From assembly GCA_950097245.1 (NCBI GenBank), contig CATNCS010000005.1, positions 5,678 through 69,677 of the forward strand: a stretch of DNA of 64,000 nucleotides, in the 5' to 3' direction. Both the position numbers and the translations under genes were made by a program. Below the pieces are notes generated by a model that was given only the letters and a program-made list of their open reading frames with translations, was not told where the DNA came from and made no database searches. The stretch is from an uncultured Oscillospiraceae bacterium. Its GTDB lineage: Bacteria > Bacillota > Clostridia > Oscillospirales > Oscillospiraceae. Shown piece by piece: positions 1 to 18,737 of this stretch; within the stretch, counting starts at the first letter, position 1, and each line of letters starts with the position of its first letter.

Positions 1-1923
1 GAGCGGCTGTTCGTGGTGGCCGAGGCCCTGCGCCGGGGTTTTTCCCCGCAAAAAATCTACTCCATCACCAAGATGGATATCTGGTTCCTGGACGGCTTCA
101 AGCGGATCATCGACATGGAGGAGGAGCTCAAGCGCTGCAAGGGCGAGCCGGACATCGACACCCTGAAGCGGGCCAAGGAGATGTGCTTTGCCGACAGCTA
201 CATCGGCGCTCTGTGCGGCATGGCCCAGGCTGATGTGAAGGCTCTGCGGGAGCGGTACCACATCATCCCCGCCTTCAAGATGGTGGACACCTGCGCCGCC
301 GAGTTCGACGCCGAGACCCCCTATTACTACTCCACCTACGATGGAGAGAACGAGGCCCGGGACGACGGGTCCGGACGGAAGAAGGTGCTGGTACTGGGCT
401 CCGGCCCCATCCGCATTGGCCAGGGCATTGAGTTTGACTACTGCTCGGTCCACTCGGTGTGGGCGCTGAAAAAGCTGGGCTGTGAGACCATCATCGTCAA
501 CAACAACCCGGAGACCGTCTCCACCGACTTCGACGTGGCGGACAAGCTGTACTTTGAGCCCCTCACCGCCGAGGATGTGCAGAACATTGTGGAACAGGAG
601 AAACCCTGGGGGGCGGTGGTCCAGTTCGGCGGGCAGACCGCCATCAAGCTGGCCAAGGCCCTCACCGACATGGGGGTGCGCATCCTGGGCACCTCCTCCG
701 ACGGGGTGGACGCCGCCGAGGACCGGGAGCGGTTCGATGAAATTCTGTCCAAGTGCAATATCCCCCGGGCCAAAGGCAAGACCGTCTTCACCACCCAGGA
801 GGCCATTACCGCCGCCCGTGAGCTGGGATACCCCGTGCTGGTGCGGCCCTCCTACGTGCTGGGGGGCCAGGGGATGGAGATCGCCTACACCGACCGGAAT
901 ATTGAGGAGTTCATGAAGATCATCAATATGACCGTTCAGGAGCACCCAATCCTGGTGGACAAGTACCTAATGGGCCGGGAGCTGGAGGTGGACGGCGTGT
1001 TCGACGGGGAGGACATCCTCATCCCCGGCATCATGGAGCACGTGGAGCGGGCCGGGGTTCACTCGGGGGACTCCATCGCCGTTTACCCGCCCCTCCACCT
1101 GGAGGAGAAGCACCGGGAGCTCATCCTCAAGCACACCAAAAATATGGCCATGCACCTGGGGGTGGTGGGCCTCATCAACGCCCAGTATATCCTCTACGAC
1201 GACGACATCTATGTGATTGAGGTCAACCCCCGGTCCTCCCGGACCATCCCCTATATCTCCAAGGTCACCGGCGTGCCCATCATCGACCTGGCCACCCGGG
1301 TCATGCTGGGGGAGAAGCTCCGCGACATGGAGTACGGCACCGGTATCTACAAGGAGGCGGAGTATTTCGCCGTCAAGGCCCCGGTGTTCTCCTTCGAGAA
1401 GCTCACCGATGTGGACACCGGCCTGGGCCCGGAGATGAAATCCACCGGCGAGGTGCTGGGCCTGGCCGAGACCTATCCTCAGGCCCTTCTGAAGGCCTTC
1501 AAGGGCTCCGGTATGCGGGCCCCCAAGAAGGGCGGACGGATCATCATCACCGTGAAGGACGAGGACAAGGAGGAGATTATCTCCATCGCCCGGGGTTTTG
1601 AGGACATGGGGGTGGAGCTCTTCGCCACCGCCGGCACCTGCCAGACCCTCACCGACGCGGGCATCCAGTGCAAGAGCGTCAACCGGGTGTCTCAGGCCCA
1701 CCCCAACATCCTGGACATGATCGCCTCCGGCACCGTGGACCTAATTATCAACACCCCCACCCGGGGGAGAAAGCACGACTCCGACGGCTTCCGCATCCGC
1801 CGCTCCGCCGTGGAGCACGGGGTGGGCTGCGTCACCTCGGTGGACACCGCCCGGGCCCTGCTCACCGTCCGGCAGCAGAGTCGCAGCGAGGACCTCACCC
1901 CCATCGACATCACCAAAATTTGA
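1..1923 (+). CDS. carB: Carbamoyl-phosphate synthase large subunit, 5'-truncated by the window edge
   Basis: Second CPS half: LVLGSGPIRIGQGIEFDYC, NNNPETVSTD, EVNPRSSRT, C-terminal MGS domain; frame is open from base 1. Confidence 0.97.
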   Translation, partial: ERLFVVAEALRRGFSPQKIYSITKMDIWFLDGFKRIIDMEEELKRCKGEPDIDTLKRAKEMCFADSYIGALCGMAQADVKALRERYHIIPAFKMVDTCAAEFDAETPYYYSTYDGENEARDDGSGRKKVLVLGSGPIRIGQGIEFDYCSVHSVWALKKLGCETIIVNNNPETVSTDFDVADKLYFEPLTAEDVQNIVEQEKPWGAVVQFGGQTAIKLAKALTDMGVRILGTSSDGVDAAEDRERFDEILSKCNIPRAKGKTVFTTQEAITAARELGYPVLVRPSYVLGGQGMEIAYTDRNIEEFMKIINMTVQEHPILVDKYLMGRELEVDGVFDGEDILIPGIMEHVERAGVHSGDSIAVYPPLHLEEKHRELILKHTKNMAMHLGVVGLINAQYILYDDDIYVIEVNPRSSRTIPYISKVTGVPIIDLATRVMLGEKLRDMEYGTGIYKEAEYFAVKAPVFSFEKLTDVDTGLGPEMKSTGEVLGLAETYPQALLKAFKGSGMRAPKKGGRIIITVKDEDKEEIISIARGFEDMGVELFATAGTCQTLTDAGIQCKSVNRVSQAHPNILDMIASGTVDLIINTPTRGRKHDSDGFRIRRSAVEHGVGCVTSVDTARALLTVRQQSRSEDLTPIDITKI

Positions 1924-12032: not shown

Positions 12033-12737
12033 TTACCGGTGCTTGTTGATGATGGTAATATCCCGTGCCCCGGTCTTCAGATCGAAGAGCTGGACGTAGA
12101 GGGACACCTTGTTTTCCCCGTTCAGCGCGGCCCAGATTTCCTCCGACCAGGAGCAGGCGTCAACCGTGCCGATAGCCACCCGCCGGGGCTCCCCCTGGAA
12201 GGAGGGGAGGGGGTCCAGGTTCTCCTGGTAGGTGTGGATGAAGTGGCCCGTTCCGGCGATGGGGGAGTCGTACTCGAAGAAGTACCGGCAGCAGCAGTTC
12301 GGGTCGCCGTCCAGGCTCTTGAGGATGGAGAGGTTATAGCTGCCATCGGGCTTGACCACCCCGGAGATACGGGGGGTCCAGTTGGGGCTGTCGGGCTCGA
12401 AGGTCCGGGTATTCAGGGCGTGGCGGTAGCAGTGGCCCTCCCCGATGGCGTCACGGATGGTGTCGGTCTGGTCGCCGTTGGTTATCACCAGCAGGCCGTT
12501 ATCCAGCAGCCGGACGGGGTGGTAGATAATCAGGGAGGGGTCGGTCATTTTGGACTCGTCAAAGGCGCGGGTTCGGATGCCGTCCTCCGTCTGCTCAAAG
12601 ATTCGGTTGCGGCTGTTCTCGCTGCGGCCCATGATGAAGTAAGCCACCACTGCCTTTGTATTGTCGGCGGTGCGGCCAAGGACGATGCCCCGGCCGGGGT
12701 AGGGATTTTCAGCGAGGTATTTCATCAGATCGATCAT
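12033..12737 (-). CDS. Stand-alone IMP cyclohydrolase (PurO-like)
   Basis: YPGRGIV, YFIMGRSENSRNR, TNGDQTD, TFEPD..N.TPRISG; located inside the pur operon. Confidence 0.88.
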   Translation of the reverse strand: MIDLMKYLAENPYPGRGIVLGRTADNTKAVVAYFIMGRSENSRNRIFEQTEDGIRTRAFDESKMTDPSLIIYHPVRLLDNGLLVITNGDQTDTIRDAIGEGHCYRHALNTRTFEPDSPNWTPRISGVVKPDGSYNLSILKSLDGDPNCCCRYFFEYDSPIAGTGHFIHTYQENLDPLPSFQGEPRRVAIGTVDACSWSEEIWAALNGENKVSLYVQLFDLKTGARDITIINKHR

Positions 12738-12752
12738 ATTGGGTTACCTCCT

Positions 12753-12826
12753 GTAGGGGCGGCCTATAGCCGCCCGGAAAATGAAATGCAGGGTGAAAAT
12801 GGCGGGCGGCCACAGGCCGCCCCTAC
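12753..12826. repeat. REP-like inverted doublet 1 (REPIN-like)
   Basis: GTAGGGGCGGCCTATAGCCGCCC (12753-12775) and inverted GTAGGGGCGGCCTGTGGCCGCCC (12804-12826), 28-nt spacer. Confidence 0.8.
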
Positions 12827-13455
12827 GGCAAAATTCGGACGGTCCGTCCCTCCACCCGCAGCCGGTCCTGGCAGAACAGGGAGACGGCCCGGGGCAGGAG
12901 CTTCCACTCGCACTGCTCCATGATCCGGCGCTGGAGGGTCTCCGGGGTGTCGTCTGGGAGGACATCTACCGCCTTCTGGAGGATGATGGGCCCCCCGTCG
13001 CACTCCTCGTTGACAAAGTGAACGGTGGCCCCGGACACCTTCACCCCGTAGGCCAGGGCCTGCTCATGGACGTGGAGGCCATAGGCCCCCTTGCCGCAGA
13101 AGGAGGGGATGAGCGCGGGGTGGATATTGATGACGGCATTGTTGTAAACCTCAAATAACTCATGGGTAACGATAGTCATAAACCCGGCCATGACCACAAC
13201 ATCTATGGATAGAGACTTCAATTTATCTACCAGTGCCACCGTCATAGCCTGGCTGGAGGGGTATTTTTTTCGGTCCAGCACGCAACTGGGGATGCCCGCG
13301 TTTTTGGCCCGCTCCAAAGCGTAAACCTCGAGTGCGGAAGAGATTACAATGGAAATTTCTCCATTGATAATCTCCCCCCGGCCCTGGGCGTCGATGAGGG
13401 CCTGTAAATTTGTCCCGCCCCCGGACACCAGAACAGCAATTCGTTTCGTACTCAT
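12823..13455 (-). CDS. purN: Phosphoribosylglycinamide formyltransferase
   Basis: [39 protein letters not shown]. Confidence 0.96.
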
Positions 13456-14519
13456 CGGACAGGGGGGCAGACTTCGCCGAAGGAGACCCCCGCCTCTCCC
13501 GTCTGTACACAGCCCACCTCAGCTGCGTCGGTCTCGCCGGCGGCCCGGAGGATGGACAGGGCCTGCTCTGCCTGGTTCTGGGGGACAGCCAGCACCATGC
13601 CCAGGCCCATATTAAAGGTGTTGTACATGTCGTGCTCCGGGATGTCCCCCCGCTTCTGAATCAGGTCAAAAATGGGGAGGCGGGGCAGGGTGCCGGCGAA
13701 GAAGAAGGCCTCCAGCCCCTTGGGCAGCATCCGGGGGACATTTTCGTAGAAGCCGCCGCCGGTGATGTGGCTGGCGCCGTGGAGATCGATGCCGCCCTCC
13801 AGCAGGGCCAGGACGGGCTTCACATAGAGTTTGGTGGGGGCCAGCAGGGCCTCGCCCAGGGACCTGCCCTCCAGCTCGTCCATGGGAGAGGTGAGGTCGG
13901 CGTGCTCGATGTCGAAGACCTTGCGCACCAGGGAGAAGCCGTTGGAGTGGACTCCGGAGGAGGTCAGGCCGATGAGGACATCCCCCTCAGCCACCCTGGA
14001 GCCGTCGATGATTTTCTCCCTGTCCACTACGCCCACGGCGAAGCCGGCCAGGTCGTAGTCCTGGGGGGCCATCAGGCCGGGGTGCTCGGCGGTCTCACCG
14101 CCGATGAGGGCGCAGCCCGACTGAACGCAGCCCTCGGCCACACCGGAGACGATGGAGGCCACCTTCTCCGGCTCGTTCTTGCCGATGGCGATGTAGTCCA
14201 GGAAAAACAGGGGCTTGGCGCCGCAGCAGATGATGTCGTTGACGCACATGGCCACGCAGTCGATGCCGATGGTGTCGTGCCTGTCCAGCAGCTGGGCCAG
14301 GCGGATCTTGGTGCCTACGCCGTCAGTGCCGGAGACCAGCACCGGCTCCTTGATCCCAGACAGGTTGGGGGCGAACAGGCCGCCGAAGCCGCCGATACCG
14401 CTGACCACTCCGGAGATCATGGTGCGGGCCACGTGCTGTTTCATGAGCTGTACGCCCTTGTAGCCGGCCTCAATATCCACGCCGGCGGCAGCGTAGGACG
14501 CGGAATGGGAATTATCCAT
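13452..14519 (-). CDS. purM: Phosphoribosylformylglycinamidine cyclo-ligase
   Basis: [42 protein letters not shown]; start moved to 14519. Confidence 0.96.
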
Positions 14520-14542
14520 AGGAGAACCTCCAAACAATCATT

Positions 14543-14623
14543 GTAGGGGGCGGCCTCTGTGCCGCCCCGATTTATAGGGCAATAACAACGGGGAAACGGG
14601 GCGGCGCAGAGGCCGCCCCCTAC
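14543..14623. repeat. REP-like inverted doublet 2
   Basis: GTAGGGGGCGGCCTCTGTGCCGCCCCG (14543-14569) and an inverted copy with one mismatch (14597-14623), 27-nt spacer. Confidence 0.8.
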
Positions 14624-14624
14624 A

Positions 14625-16049
14625 TTATTCCCTCCCTGACCAGCAGTAGGTGCACACCTTATCCCGGTCGAGGCCGATGGCCTCCAGCAGGCCGTCCAAG
14701 GATTGGTAGCCCAGGGAGTCGAAACCGAATTTCTCGCAGATGGTCTTCAGCATGCACTGGCCCCGCTGGGTGGAGGAATCCGCGTACTCCTCCAGGTGTT
14801 GCTGACCCTCGTCGCCCTCCAGCTCCTGGATGGTGCGCCGGGCCAGCAGGTCCATATCGGAGTTTCCCCGGGAAAAGTTCAGATACTTGCAGCTGTACAT
14901 AATGGGGGGGCAGGCGGAGCGCATGTGGACCTCCTTGGCCCCGGATTCGTAGAGAAATTCCACCGTTTCCCGCAGCTGGGTGCCCCGGACGATGGAATCG
15001 TCCACAAAGAGCAGCTTTTTGCCCTGGATCAGCTCGGGGACAGGGATCTGCTTCATCTTGGCCACCTGGTTGCGCACATCCTGGTTGGTGGGCATAAAGG
15101 AGCGGGGCCAGGTGGGGGTGTACTTGACAAAGGGGCGGGCGAAGTGCTTGCCGCTGGCGTTGGCGTAGCCGATGGCGTGGGGGATGCCTGAGTCTGGGAC
15201 GCCGGCCACGTAATCCACGTCGGGCAGGGTGCCCCGTTTCTTCTCGTCTCGGGCCATAATCGCGCCGTTTTGGTAGCGCATGACCTCCACATTGACCCCC
15301 TCGTAGTTGGAGTTGGGGTAGCCGTAGTAGCTCCAGAGGAAGGCGCAGATTTTCATCTCCTCCCCGGCGGGGGAGAGGACGTCGAAGCCGTCCGGGCGGA
15401 TACGGATAATCTCCCGGGGGCCCAGCTCATAGGCGTCCTCATAGCCCAGCTTGTGGTAGGCGAAGGACTCAAAGGAGACACAGTGCCCCTTGTCGTTTCT
15501 GCCGATGAGGACGGGCAGGCGGCCCACTCGGTCCCGGGCGGCGATAATCTCGCCGTCGTCAGTGAGGATAAGCAGGGTGAGGGAGCCGGCCACCGCCTCC
15601 TGGGCATGGAGAATACCGTCAACCAGGTTGTCCTTCTGGTTGATGAGGGCGGCGGCCAGCTCGGTGGAGTTGACTCTGCCGGAGCTCATGGCCATAAACT
15701 GGTGGCCGTGGTCGGAGAAGTATTCGTCAACCAGCTGCTCGGCATTGTTGATAATTCCCACAGTGGTGATGGCGTACAGCCCCAGGTGGGAGCGGACCAG
15801 CAGGGGCTGGGGGTCGGTGTCGCTGATGCAGCCGATGCCGGAGCAGCCGTGGAACTTGGTCAGGTCCTTCTCAAACTTGGTGCGGAAGGGGGTGTTCTCA
15901 ATGGAGTGGATCTGCCGCTGAAAGCCGTCTTTGGCGTCGTGAAGAATCATGCCGCCCCGGCGGGTGCCCAGATGGGAGTGGTAGTCCACCCCGAAGAAGA
16001 TATCAAGGGAGACGTCCTGCGTAGAGACGGCTCCGAAAAAGCCACCCAT
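14625..16049 (-). CDS. purF: Amidophosphoribosyltransferase (Clostridia/Bacteroides type)
   Basis: MGGFFGA start, HSHLGTRRGG, VDDSIVRGTQ, Fe-S cysteines (SACPP, CTYCW). Confidence 0.93.
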   Translation of the reverse strand: MGGFFGAVSTQDVSLDIFFGVDYHSHLGTRRGGMILHDAKDGFQRQIHSIENTPFRTKFEKDLTKFHGCSGIGCISDTDPQPLLVRSHLGLYAITTVGIINNAEQLVDEYFSDHGHQFMAMSSGRVNSTELAAALINQKDNLVDGILHAQEAVAGSLTLLILTDDGEIIAARDRVGRLPVLIGRNDKGHCVSFESFAYHKLGYEDAYELGPREIIRIRPDGFDVLSPAGEEMKICAFLWSYYGYPNSNYEGVNVEVMRYQNGAIMARDEKKRGTLPDVDYVAGVPDSGIPHAIGYANASGKHFARPFVKYTPTWPRSFMPTNQDVRNQVAKMKQIPVPELIQGKKLLFVDDSIVRGTQLRETVEFLYESGAKEVHMRSACPPIMYSCKYLNFSRGNSDMDLLARRTIQELEGDEGQQHLEEYADSSTQRGQCMLKTICEKFGFDSLGYQSLDGLLEAIGLDRDKVCTYCWSGRE

Positions 16050-16061
16050 GGATGTTCCTCC

Positions 16062-16772
16062 TTATTTGCCCAGGAGGCGGCGGCTCATCTCCTGATAAGC
16101 GCCCTCCACGTTGCCCAGGTCCCGGCGGAAGCGGTCCTTGTCCAGCTTTTCCCCGGTCTTGGAGTCCCAGAAGCGGCAGGTGTCGGGGGAAATCTCGTCG
16201 GCCAGGACAATGGTGCCGTCGGAGGTCTTGCCAAACTCCAGCTTGAAGTCCACCAGGGTGACGCCGCAGGCGAGGAGCTCCGCCTTGAGGAAGTCGTTCA
16301 CCTGGAAGGCGTACTTCTTGATGAGCTCAATCTCCTCCCAGGTGGCCAGGTGGAGGGCCACCGCGTGGTAGTCGTTGATGAGGGGGTCGTGGAGGTCGTC
16401 GTTCTTGTAGGAGAACTCGATGGTGGGGGCGTCGAAGACGATGCCCTCCTCCACGCCGTAGTGCTTGGCAAAGGAGCCGGCGGAGATGTTGCGGATAATG
16501 ACCTCCAGGGGGACAATGGACACCTTTTTCACGGCGGTTTCCCGCTCGTTCAGCTCCTCCACAAAGTGGGTGGGCACCCCGGCCTTCTCCAGCTGCCCCA
16601 TGAGGAAGTTGGTCATCTGGTTGTTGATGGCCCCCTTGCCGGTGATGGTGCCCTTCTTCAGGCCGTCAAAGGCGGTGGCATCGTCCTTGTAGGACACGAT
16701 GACCACGTCGGGGTCCTCGGTGGCAAATACCTTCTTGGCCTTGCCCTCGTAGAGCTGCTCCAGTTTATTCAT
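16062..16772 (-). CDS. purC: SAICAR synthetase
   Basis: [36 protein letters not shown]; start moved to 16772. Confidence 0.97.
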
Positions 16773-16798
16773 GATAATACATCCTTTCAAAATTTGGT

Positions 16799-16866
16799 GT
16801 AGAGGCGGATAATATCTGCCCGTGGACAAATGCGTGTGATAGCGGGCGGCTGATAGCCGCCCCTGC
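16799..16866. repeat. REP-like inverted doublet 3 (degenerate)
   Basis: GTAGAGGCGGATAATATCTGCCC (16799-16821) and inverted GCAGGGGCGGCTATCAGCCGCCC (16844-16866). Confidence 0.7.
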
Positions 16867-16879
16867 AAAACGGACTTCA

Positions 16880-17374
16880 TCAGCCCCTCAGCTCCGATTG
16901 GAGCTTGGCCTCCTTCTCGGCGATCTGCTGAGCCATCTTCTCCCGGGCCTGGTCCAGCTTGGCGGCCAGGGCGTCGTCGGAGACCGCCAGAATCTGGGCG
17001 GCCAGGACGGCGGCGTTTTTGGCCCCGTTGATGGCCACAGTGGCCACGGGGATGCCGCTGGGCATCTGGACGGTGGCCAGCAGGGCGTCCAGGCCGTCCA
17101 TGGCGCCCCCCCTCATGGGGATGCCGATGACAGGCAGGGTGGAGTTGCCGGCGAAGGCCCCGGCCAGATGGGCGGCCATACCGGCGGCGCAGATGAGCAC
17201 GCCGAAGCCGTTGGCCCGGGCGCTTCCGGCAAAGTCGGCGGCGGCGGCGGGGGTGCGGTGGGCGGAGAGAATGTGGGCCTCATAGGGGATTCCGAACTCC
17301 TCCAGCTGCTTGCAGGCCCCCTGGACCACAGGCCAATCGCTGTCGGAGCCCATGATGACAGCCACTTTTTTCAT
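16880..17374 (-). CDS. purE: N5-CAIR mutase
   Basis: [31 protein letters not shown]; AAAGGAG RBS; start moved to 17374. Confidence 0.97.
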
Positions 17375-17390
17375 ATGTGACACTCCTTTC

Positions 17391-17430
17391 AAAAAGCGCA
17401 GGCTATCTGCGGATAGACAGATAGCCTGCG
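17391..17430 (-). terminator. Terminator-like hairpin inside the purE 5' leader
   Basis: Perfect 13-bp stem CGCAGGCTATCTG/CAGATAGCCTGCG, 8-nt loop, then CTTTTT, directly upstream of the purE RBS and downstream of the predicted promoter. Confidence 0.8.
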
Positions 17431-17432
17431 TA

Positions 17433-17495
17433 TTATGGGGCGATTTTGGGCGGATTGGGGCCATAAAAGTGAAGAAATCGGTAAAAGTTAAGCAT
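17433..17495 (-). CDS. Putative 20-aa leader peptide MLNFYRFLHFYGPNPPKIAP
   Basis: GAGGAGG RBS 7 nt before ATG; stop ends 2 nt before the hairpin stem. Confidence 0.6.
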   Translation of the reverse strand: MLNFYRFLHFYGPNPPKIAP

Positions 17496-17533
17496 GACAG
17501 GCCCTCCTCTTCCCCTGAAAAATATCAAATCCC

Positions 17534-17562
17534 ATTTTATAGGTAAATCAGGCAATTTGCAA
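17534..17562 (-). promoter_or_regulatory. Sigma-A promoter of the pur operon
   Basis: TTGCAA-N17-TAAAAT. Confidence 0.7.
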
Positions 17563-17613
17563 TAGGGAGAAAAATTTTTTGTATGTTTGTACAAGAAACA
17601 GGCGGGAATCGAC

Positions 17614-17652
17614 AAAAAAGTAGGGGCCGCCGTCCACGGCGGAACGTCCTAC
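17614..17652 (-). terminator. Terminator after the glycosyltransferase gene
   Basis: GTAGG...CCGCCGTGGACGGCGG...CCTAC hairpin followed by TTTTTT; insulates the pur promoter. Confidence 0.7.
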
Positions 17653-18737
17653 AGCAGTCCGGCCGTGGTGAGAATCCGCTCCACCTCGTTTACCCGGACG
17701 GGCCAGGCGGTCTGAGCGGCCCGGTCCATCCGGCGTCTGGCCAGGCCGGGGGCCTCCTCCAGGGCGTGGGCGCACAGGGTGACGAACTCCTCCAGCTCAT
17801 GAGCCCCGTAGACCACGTCGGGGAACTGCTCCACCTGGTCGGGCCACAGCATGGACACCACCGGCTTGCCGGTGGCCAGATACTCATACAGCCGGGGGGA
17901 GACCACCTCGTCAAAGGGCAGGTCCATCCGGGGCAGGTCCATCAGCACCTGACAGCGGTAGAGCCAGTCGGGCACCTCCGCCGCCGGCCGGGGGCCGGTG
18001 AGATACACATTGGACAGCCTGTCCAGCTGCCGCAGGAAGGGGTTACGCTTATCCACTGCCCCCAGCAGGAGAAAGCCCCAGTCGGGCCGCGCCTGGGCGG
18101 CGTAGAGCACAGGGGACAGATCCAATCCCTCCCGGACAGCCCCGGCCCAGCCGAAAATGGGGGCGGTCACCCCTGGCATGGGGTCGGGGCGGCGGAGGCT
18201 GGGGTCGAACAGGGGCAGGTTGATGCCGTTGGGCAGCAGGGCGATGTTGGCGCTGCACGGGGCCAGCCGCTCCCGGAGCAGGGGGGAGGCGGCAAAGACC
18301 ACGTCCGCCGCCTGGGCCAGGCTGCCCTCCCAGTGGACAGGGGGGCCGTCCCACACCCGGTCGCAGTCGTAGACCAGGGCGCCGTACTCCAGCCGGTCCA
18401 CCAGGTGGACGTGGCGGGGGTGGGTGGTCCACAGCAGGGGCTCCCTGAAGCGCTTGCGGGCGGCGGTGTCCTGTATAAAACGGCTGATCTTGTTCCAGGC
18501 CATCTGAAACAGGCGGCGGTACTGCTCTGAGATGGGAAAAAGAATGGGGGGCAGGGTGTAGGCCGTCACGTTGGGGCGGACCTGCCGGCCCTTTTTTAAG
18601 AAGGACTTGTCCCGGGGGGATTGGGCGGGGGAGAAGTAGAGCACCTGGCAGTCCCGCAGCCGGGAGACAATCTGCTGGGTGCGGCCGGGAAGCCGGTTGG
18701 ACCAGGGCTCGTTGGACAGACAGAGGATTTGCTTCAA
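17649..18737 (-). CDS. GT-B glycosyltransferase (TuaH-like)
   Basis: GGAGG RBS with TTG start (KQILCLSNEPW); VYDC, ADVVFAAS, LLPNG, YEYLATGKPVV. Confidence 0.8.
   Translation of the reverse strand: MKQILCLSNEPWSNRLPGRTQQIVSRLRDCQVLYFSPAQSPRDKSFLKKGRQVRPNVTAYTLPPILFPISEQYRRLFQMAWNKISRFIQDTAARKRFREPLLWTTHPRHVHLVDRLEYGALVYDCDRVWDGPPVHWEGSLAQAADVVFAASPLLRERLAPCSANIALLPNGINLPLFDPSLRRPDPMPGVTAPIFGWAGAVREGLDLSPVLYAAQARPDWGFLLLGAVDKRNPFLRQLDRLSNVYLTGPRPAAEVPDWLYRCQVLMDLPRMDLPFDEVVSPRLYEYLATGKPVVSMLWPDQVEQFPDVVYGAHELEEFVTLCAHALEEAPGLARRRMDRAAQTAWPVRVNEVERILTTAGLL

Follow-up and report, generated by a model that had tools for sequence, protein, structure and literature searches.

A stretch of 64,000 nucleotides (nt) from contig CATNCS010000005.1 of an uncultured Oscillospiraceae bacterium, referred to here as the window, carries on its minus strand a purine operon comprising purE, purC, purF, purM, purN and an IMP cyclohydrolase-like gene (12033..17374; assigned by Pfam and extending further downstream). 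Upstream of purE lies a leader with a promoter, a short open reading frame (sORF) and an intrinsic terminator, which an original prediction, made from the letters of the window, had taken for a translation-coupled attenuator of the operon responding to purine or GTP status. All features of the window described below are on the minus strand.

The leader is headed by a sigma-70-type promoter (17534..17562), in which the −35 hexamer TTGCAA (17562-17557) and the −10 hexamer TAAAAT (17539-17534) are separated by a 17-nt spacer. It is one of two promoter-like sites in 1.2 kb, where 0.4 would be expected, and its CTTGCAAA and TATAAAAT are kept in relatives. A run of 15 purines, AGGGGAAGAGGAGGG (17516-17502; 10 G), holds the sequence GGAGG 7 nt before the ATG of the sORF. 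This Shine-Dalgarno (SD) sequence belongs to a purine-rich 5′ untranslated region (5′UTR) whose segment 17500..17516 forms, in the minimum-free-energy (MFE) fold and by duplex statistics, the 5′ strand of a helix that we call P1. The sORF (17433..17495; ATG 17495-17493, TAA 17435-17433) has 20 codons plus the stop and encodes MLNFYRFLHFYGPNPPKIAP. Within it, a conserved block, GGCCCCAAUCCGCCC (17448..17462), was identified by comparison and duplex energies as the 3′, anti-SD strand of P1, and comparative position counts mark out a run of four adenines (17444..17447), consisting of the Lys codon AAA and one further A, directly 3′ of that strand.

The terminator hairpin (17397..17430) begins 2 nt past the stop codon and has a perfect 14-bp stem, where 13 bp had been predicted, and a 6-nt loop; it is followed by the U-tract CUUUUU (CTTTTT in the DNA; 17391..17396) and then by the ribosome-binding site GAAAGGAG and ATG (17374-17372) of purE (17372..17390; sequence and Pfam). 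The distance from stop to hairpin and the U-tract were as originally described. The promoter, the 15-purine run with its ribosome-binding site, the 20-codon reading frame and the purE ribosome-binding site could likewise each be located, and so could the peculiarities of the sORF, namely 6 G in 63 nt, a repeated CTT(A/C)ACTTTTA unit, one CGA codon and a PxPP motif in the form PNPP.

By folding, the hairpin alone reaches −25 kcal/mol, and the 137-nt leader folds with a z-score of −4.1 against dinucleotide shuffles. This score, together with the retention of the design in relatives, confirms that the leader elements are real and exceed what chance would produce. The preceding gene, a glycosyltransferase-like reading frame ending at 17649, has its own terminator, and the leader therefore begins a transcription unit. 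The purE start follows the U-tract at a distance of only 16 nt, which leaves no room for a second promoter. Thus, transcription of purE depends on read-through of the hairpin.

Distribution of the leader and of other purine control elements

Relatives were sampled at two depths: ∼24 members of the same GTDB genus (Lawsonibacter group, Oscillospiraceae), and 100 further Oscillospiraceae genomes, mostly one per genus. The same leader stands before purE in all of the sampled genus members, and a leader of the same type was found in 18 of the 100 family genomes. At the same position before purE, 33 of the 100 carry the ZMP/ZTP riboswitch (RF01750), confirmed with Rfam in 14, and the remaining 49 have neither leader nor ZTP riboswitch, or have purE in another context.

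Firmicute purine operons are textbook cases of control by riboswitches and PurR. A search with the Rfam 15 covariance models gave no match to any family, the purine, ZMP/ZTP and PRPP/ykkC riboswitches included, at the gathering threshold anywhere in the 64-kb window, and at E < 10 the region 17300-17700 returned noise only, in agreement with the original judgement that the leader resembles no known riboswitch. In the genome that contains the window, the purine riboswitch RF00167 was not found in a search of the whole assembly, and the ZTP riboswitch RF01750 was not found with 150 of the 517 first-look candidates scored. The Bacillus-type PurR domain PuR_N (PF09182) was also not found in this genome, which is 95.6% complete, while the controls did match PF09182. 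The usual Firmicute purine sensors thus appear to be absent from the genome.

Leaders of other kinds were seen as well. Two loci from other families of the same order (L029 and L030) have a different short reading frame and terminator ∼100–150 nt upstream of purE. The reading frame at L029 encodes MFVCRCETAYGNKH and stops 8 nt before its hairpin, and the SD region there looks complementary to the 5′ arm and loop of the terminator, a different wiring; the reading frame at L030 has 17 codons. Within the family, loci L046 and L054 likewise carry unclassified leaders.

The sORF, helix P1 and the terminator

The N-terminal part of the sORF has diverged almost completely between species, with 10 different start-to-block distances and overall lengths of 19–34 codons. 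Nevertheless, an SD-preceded ATG, GTG or TTG is found in frame with the 3′ block in every case. For a test of the frame that avoids circularity, we anchored 26 leaders on a frame-independent motif, the YYYAAA nearest the hairpin, and asked which frames hold an SD-plus-start reading frame open to the anchor. The frame of the AAA does so in 21 of the 26 leaders, against 5 of 26 in each of the other two frames. The first stop in the AAA frame falls exactly three codons after AAA (12 nt past the first A) in 21 of the 26, and is scattered in the other frames. The distance from stop to stem is 1–9 nt in 33 of 39 leaders, and the reading frame enters the hairpin in two. On this comparative evidence, translation of the sORF is well supported. 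Among the properties that the original prediction had put forward for alignment in relatives, the SD sequence and the short stop-to-hairpin distance are kept, while the length of the sORF is not (10 lengths). The CGA codon and PxPP motif that it had listed are unconserved in relatives, and so is the context of the Pro codon before the stop. Codon runs are absent from the sORF; Phe is enriched (15%) but scattered, and is unrelated to purines.

The last ten codons of the sORF follow the family consensus GGN-NNN-NNN-NYG-YCC-AAA-AUC-NNN-NNN-stop, that is, G-x-x-(A/M/L/P)-(P/S)-K-I-x-x. Every leader with Lys at the consensus position encodes it by AAA, which accounts for 35% of Lys codons genome-wide, and of the 12 Ala codons found at the NYG position 11 are GCG, a codon with a share of 18% in the genome. 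The Pro/Ser codon is YCC without exception. Judged by this codon choice, the constraint on the block is one on nucleotides rather than on amino acids.

Most of this nucleotide-level conservation arises because the block pairs in P1. In much of the genus the block reads GGCCCC-AA-UCUG, and in the window GGCCC...UCC; its partner is the SD region and 5′UTR of the sORF itself, CAGA-AR-GGGGUC in the genus and GGA-GGGCC in the window. P1 is present in the minimum-free-energy fold of most leaders, and in that of the window GGGCC, GGA and GGGG pair with the 3′ part of the sORF. RNAalifold applied to a MAFFT alignment finds the terminator but not P1, as the SD strand pairs in varying registers. Since such an alignment is blind to these shifts, we compared duplex energies of cognate and non-cognate strands. 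Cognate 5′/3′ duplexes had a mean of −20.1 kcal/mol, versus −16.8 kcal/mol for non-cognate ones (38 leaders, Wilcoxon p = 2e-5), and the mean z-score against shuffled partners was −1.6. Compensatory variants include GGCCUC with GAGGU or GAGGC (L012, L018 and L019) and GGUCCC with GGGAC (L013), and other genera use other registers, such as GCGCCC with GGGGUGC, where the pairing continues through the start codon (L038, L116). What P1 encloses is conserved in neither sequence nor length, and the 5′UTR measures ∼30 nt. The 15-purine run of the original prediction is thus real and holds the ribosome-binding site, as had been stated, but it is mainly an extended SD sequence forming one strand of a conserved helix, which had been overlooked.

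The AAAA that follows the P1 strand is conserved, yet pairing in P1 does not explain it. The position is A in 24 of 32 aligned leaders, the third base of the AAA codon is never G, and a run of at least three A occurs within the 24 nt before the stem in 27 of 37 purE leaders, the run in the window being 4 nt long. In 21 of the 26 anchored leaders AAAA lies 12 nt before the stop, behind a variable N-terminal peptide. It is a candidate for an ATP-sensitive slow site of the polymerase. Several other roles were considered and rejected. Pairing of AAAA with the U-run of the 5′UTR or with the terminator U-tract is unconserved. A programmed frameshift at CCC-AAA-A would need the +1 frame, which is open into purE here and short in most relatives. 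The block (GGN8YG) matches the consensus elemental pause G−10/Y−1/G+1, but P1 pairing explains the same bases.

As a separate observation, the purE frame itself is open for 30 codons upstream of its start, from an ATG at 17464 that lies inside the sORF, in the +1 frame, and across the terminator (reading frame 16880-17464). The extension looks accidental, being much shorter upstream of purE in most relatives.

The terminator is conserved in relatives with G-U pairs and some compensatory changes. Within the genus (seen among the relatives L002-L031) its stem, CAGGCURUCUG...CAGAURGCCUG, is almost invariant while the flanking non-coding DNA has fully diverged, and the changes that do occur are mostly A/G swaps giving G-U pairs. 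An antiterminator was sought as complementarity of the leader or 5′UTR to both terminator arms, relative to shuffles and to non-cognate partners. Complementarity of the leaders did not exceed expectation for the 5′ arm (mean z 0.05, 34 leaders) and did so only slightly for the 3′ arm (mean z −0.73), and the 5′UTR gave no cognate advantage with either arm. The alternative pairing GGCCUGU:GCAGGCU that had been suggested as an antiterminator reaches −14.1 kcal/mol (z −2.1) in this genome and is missing from relatives. No RNA antiterminator, including classical 2:3/3:4 switching, was found to be conserved; therefore, any block of termination must come from the ribosome or from a trans-acting factor.

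The permease leader and the upstream DNA box

When the genome was scanned for this architecture, the purE leader and one other were the only ones to stand out. The second leader lies outside the window, on contig C43 of the same genome (locus L251, ∼1142-1400, minus strand), and has the same design. Its promoter consists of CTTGCGA, a 17-nt spacer and TATAAT, its 5′UTR is CGGAUAGAAAAGGAGGG, and its reading frame of 20 codons encodes MSALTFVHRTLDGALASICC. The hairpin, GACGAUUC-AUUGG-GAAUCGUC, has its first two bases within the UGA stop and is followed by seven U. The gene behind it encodes an NCS2 nucleobase permease, scoring highest with the uracil-permease model (303–304 bits, below its cut-off of 477) and distinctly lower with the xanthine permease model (210–218 bits). 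No Rfam family, the PyrR site included, matched the permease leaders.

This leader is kept in 12 genus relatives (L252-L264), with reading frames of 17–33 codons. Across these 12 and the genome of the window, 8 of the 13 leaders have a stop that overlaps the stem, and in 4 the stop is placed deeper within it. Helix P1 recurs here: cognate duplexes average −23.9 kcal/mol, against −19.6 kcal/mol for non-cognate ones (p = 1e-4), and the helix covaries, with AUAGAAA:UUUCUAU in some leaders and ACAGAAA:UUUCUGU in others. The two families differ in what precedes the stem. The last 24 nt contain 12.2 U and 0.85 A in the permease leaders, versus 5.5 U and 7.7 A in the purE leaders (p = 3e-6 for U, p = 9e-8 for A), a contrast that is suggestive rather than proof because pairing with the purine-rich 5′UTR forces part of the U-richness.

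A further conserved element lies just upstream of the −35 of the purE leader promoter, a DNA box with the sequence CTTGTACAAACATACAAAAAAT (17574..17595) that is kept in the genus and in the family leaders. Family-wide, the box has the consensus TTGTnnAAGnnTACRAAAAT, often with the palindrome CTTGTACAAG, and precedes the −35 of pur promoters by 13–26 bp; promoters of pur genes that lack an attenuator have it as well (L117, L125). The box is probably an operator or an UP-like element of the pur promoter. The version at L041, ACACGAACATT, resembles the B. subtilis PurBox. A PurBox/PurR reading was rejected, however, as the genome has no PuR_N protein and contains the box only once.

Mechanism, alternatives and known systems

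The region probably attenuates transcription of the pur operon in a ribosome-dependent manner. This is the best reading because the sORF is held in frame, the gap between stop and terminator is constrained, no riboswitch matches and purE depends on read-through. These features support the attenuation part of the original prediction; its sensing part we infer.

The proposed mechanism runs as follows. The promoter, a strong one, would produce a leader RNA of ∼135 nt, in which the initiation region of the sORF is free until the anti-SD strand, 45–60 nt later, leaves the polymerase. If no ribosome has started by then, P1 would close the initiation region, the terminator would form and transcription would end. 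A ribosome that has started in time would instead trail the polymerase, melt P1 and reach the stop codon. While a stop codon occupies its A site, a ribosome covers ∼9–10 nt past the stop, the argument that is also made for the trp leader. Here such a footprint would mask the base of the 5′ arm of the terminator, beside the U-tract, and allow read-through into purE. The variable measured would be the speed of the polymerase relative to translation, and this is the most speculative step. When ATP or purine nucleoside triphosphates (NTPs) are scarce, the polymerase would linger at the A-run with the anti-SD strand still hidden, giving the ribosome time to load and catch up, with read-through as the outcome. 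E. coli pyrBI follows this logic for UTP, and it has been proposed for ATP at the adenine run of Salmonella mgtM.

That the sensing step consists of NTP-dependent polymerase speed is possible rather than probable. For the combined reading, a ribosome-dependent, pyrBI-like attenuator that includes NTP-speed sensing, we lean slightly in favour. A broader generalization, that the Lawsonibacter-group Oscillospiraceae have modular kinetic NTP sensors, free of protein and aptamer, must be regarded as doubtful. In such a sensor the anti-SD strand would act as timer, the homopolymer would set the NTP (an A-run for the purine operon, a U-tract for the uracil-type permease), and the stop would be placed such that only a timely ribosome masks the terminator.

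A number of observations weigh against the attenuator model or its sensing step. In most genus members the stop lies 7–8 nt from the stem, so that a terminating ribosome would mask only ∼1–3 bp. The A-run is short and is missing in ∼10 of 37 purE leaders; upstream of the block the sORF is rich in pyrimidines (A 13%, U 34%), which makes dependence on purine NTPs rest on very few positions; and the U-richness of the permease leaders is, as noted, partly a product of pairing. No recognizable pause signal was found in the leaders, the NusG-type motif TTNTTT occurring in 8 of 39. Transcription outruns translation in Bacillus subtilis, and tight coupling is not a given in the class Clostridia. Finally, the near-invariant stem within the genus is unexplained by the model and would be compatible with a trans-acting factor, be it a protein or an RNA that binds the stem, or with an operator in the DNA.

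The alternative that survives best, although we consider it unlikely, is that the leader senses translation capacity or the stringent response. Binding of the 30S subunit and initiation factor 2 (IF2) would race against closure of P1, reporting on free ribosomes and on IF2-GTP versus ppGpp with no NTP-specific pausing, and nucleotide genes would be read during active growth only, as has been proposed for the E. coli ampC attenuator. That P1 sequesters the initiation region of the purE and permease leaders alike is in line with this, and the same design at purine and pyrimidine-type genes fits a common non-specific signal. The contrast between A-rich and U-rich sequence before the two terminators is, however, left unexplained, and such a sensor would give no end-product feedback, in a genome where other purine sensors were not found.

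A trans-acting sensor could also account for the invariance of the stem in the genus at a level of divergence where neutral sites are saturated, and for the conservation of AAAA though it is unpaired. An RNA-binding protein or small RNA would act on P1, the stem of the terminator or the stretch CCAAAA, with the sORF in a merely preparatory role; in a second variant, the terminator DNA, being palindromic, would double as the operator of a repressor that blocks the polymerase. The separate DNA box upstream, which we read as showing protein control of the promoter, points in the same direction. Against this, the geometry of sORF, stop and terminator persists beyond the genus although the sequence of the stem is free to change there, the stem of the permease leader differs, and we found no candidate factor. 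Taken jointly, the two variants are quite improbable.

The C-terminal motif G-x-x-(A/M/L/P)-(P/S)-K and its distance of three codons from K to stop, both of which hold across genera, raise the possibility of a nascent-peptide sensor of the TnaC/SpeFL kind. A purine compound would arrest the ribosome at P/S-K, four codons before the stop. The edge of the arrested ribosome would lie approximately at the stop codon, short of the terminator (OFF), and an unarrested ribosome would proceed to the stop and mask the terminator (ON), a geometry that yields the correct sign of feedback. We nevertheless regard this as distinctly improbable. It is the nucleotides that are conserved rather than the peptide, the reverse of what arrest sensors such as TnaC, SecM and SpeFL call for; this shows in the strict use of AAA and YCC and the near-strict use of GCG, for which P1 mostly accounts. 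The last three residues before the stop are free to vary, and the permease leader lacks the K. We also know of no arrest motif that resembles the C-terminus of the sORF.

Last, the terminator U-tract of only five U after a C would suit the absence of any switch, either as an independent micro-gene with its own terminator before a leaky, constitutive purE or as an undescribed riboswitch with an accidental reading frame, but this is very improbable given that a purE promoter lacks room (in most genus members the start is 15–24 nt away), that frame conservation rules out an accidental reading frame, that the ∼30-nt 5′UTR and the unconserved P1-enclosed region leave no aptamer-like core, and that sister genera have a ZTP riboswitch at the homologous position, as would suit a site of regulation.

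A ribosome-dependent attenuator, our preferred reading, has its closest counterparts in the pyrBI (pyrL) and pyrE attenuators of E. coli, in which coupling of transcription and leader translation is sensitive to UTP. As there, the operon serves nucleotide synthesis and directly follows an intrinsic terminator that the leader reading frame reaches or enters, and a dedicated RNA antiterminator is missing, leaving the ribosome as the agent that would block the hairpin here. A homopolymer-rich stretch just ahead of the terminator may be a further parallel, in the form of the short A-run that most purE leaders have and of a U-rich tract in the permease leader. The differences are that our leader precedes a purine operon in a Firmicute of the class Clostridia, that its reading frame usually stops 1–9 nt before the hairpin whereas that of pyrBI runs through it, and that it has a helix sequestering the SD sequence of its own reading frame; NTP-sensitive pausing, moreover, is a part that we infer here.

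In the mgtCBR leader of Salmonella, the reading frame mgtM senses ATP; its peptide is unconserved, but its adenines and their position relative to the stem-loops are kept, and RNA polymerase is proposed to slow at the A-run under low ATP with the ribosome staying close (PMC3641672). The purE leader shares the short reading frame with a conserved adenine run, the variable peptide and the fixed position relative to stem-loops. The target genes and the stem-loop architecture are different, there is no sequence relation, and the sign would be opposite: high ATP promotes read-through in mgtM, whereas low ATP would do so here.

With the amino-acid leaders trpL, hisL, pheL, thrL and leuL, the purE leader has in common the succession of promoter, SD sequence, short reading frame, terminator and structural genes, and, on the proposed mechanism, a ribosome at the stop that masks ∼10 nt downstream. 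It differs from the trpL/hisL type in having no regulatory codon run and no 2:3 antiterminator, and in an upstream helix that involves the SD sequence itself. The ZMP/ZTP riboswitch, which occupies the same position before purE, is a functional analogue in its terminator-based control of pur operons; the leader described here has no aptamer, and control would run via translation rather than via a ligand-binding RNA.

Among Firmicute leader-peptide attenuators that depend on polymerase pausing, the tlrB (yxjB) leader of B. subtilis is reported to combine antibiotic-dependent ribosome stalling with a NusG-dependent TTNTTT pause (PMC6851288). It resembles the purE leader in pairing a leader peptide with a terminator in a Gram-positive organism and in needing synchrony of ribosome and polymerase, and differs in its antibiotic-dependent stalling and in its use of TTNTTT, a motif present in only the 8 of 39 leaders mentioned above.

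A full-text literature search returned neither a leader-peptide attenuator for purine genes nor a description of this leader. If the preferred reading is true, the leader would be the purine counterpart of pyrBI, and one lineage would have replaced the ZTP riboswitch, at an unchanged locus, by a switch that works through translation. If the broader, doubtful generalization to modular NTP sensors is true as well, it would be the first such counterpart and would provide evidence that functional transcription-translation coupling is exploited for regulation in Clostridia, in genomes where neither a ZTP or purine riboswitch nor PurR was found. At ∼135 nt, the leader would also be a compact, mutable test system for transcription-translation coupling in gut Clostridia, and the pairing of A-rich and U-rich leaders in one genome would amount to a natural specificity-swap experiment. 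The leader thus appears to belong among the ribosome-mediated attenuators, to which it would add two new elements: paired A-rich and U-rich leaders within one genome, and an SD-sequestering helix that would set a time window for leader translation, outside the classical attenuator models.

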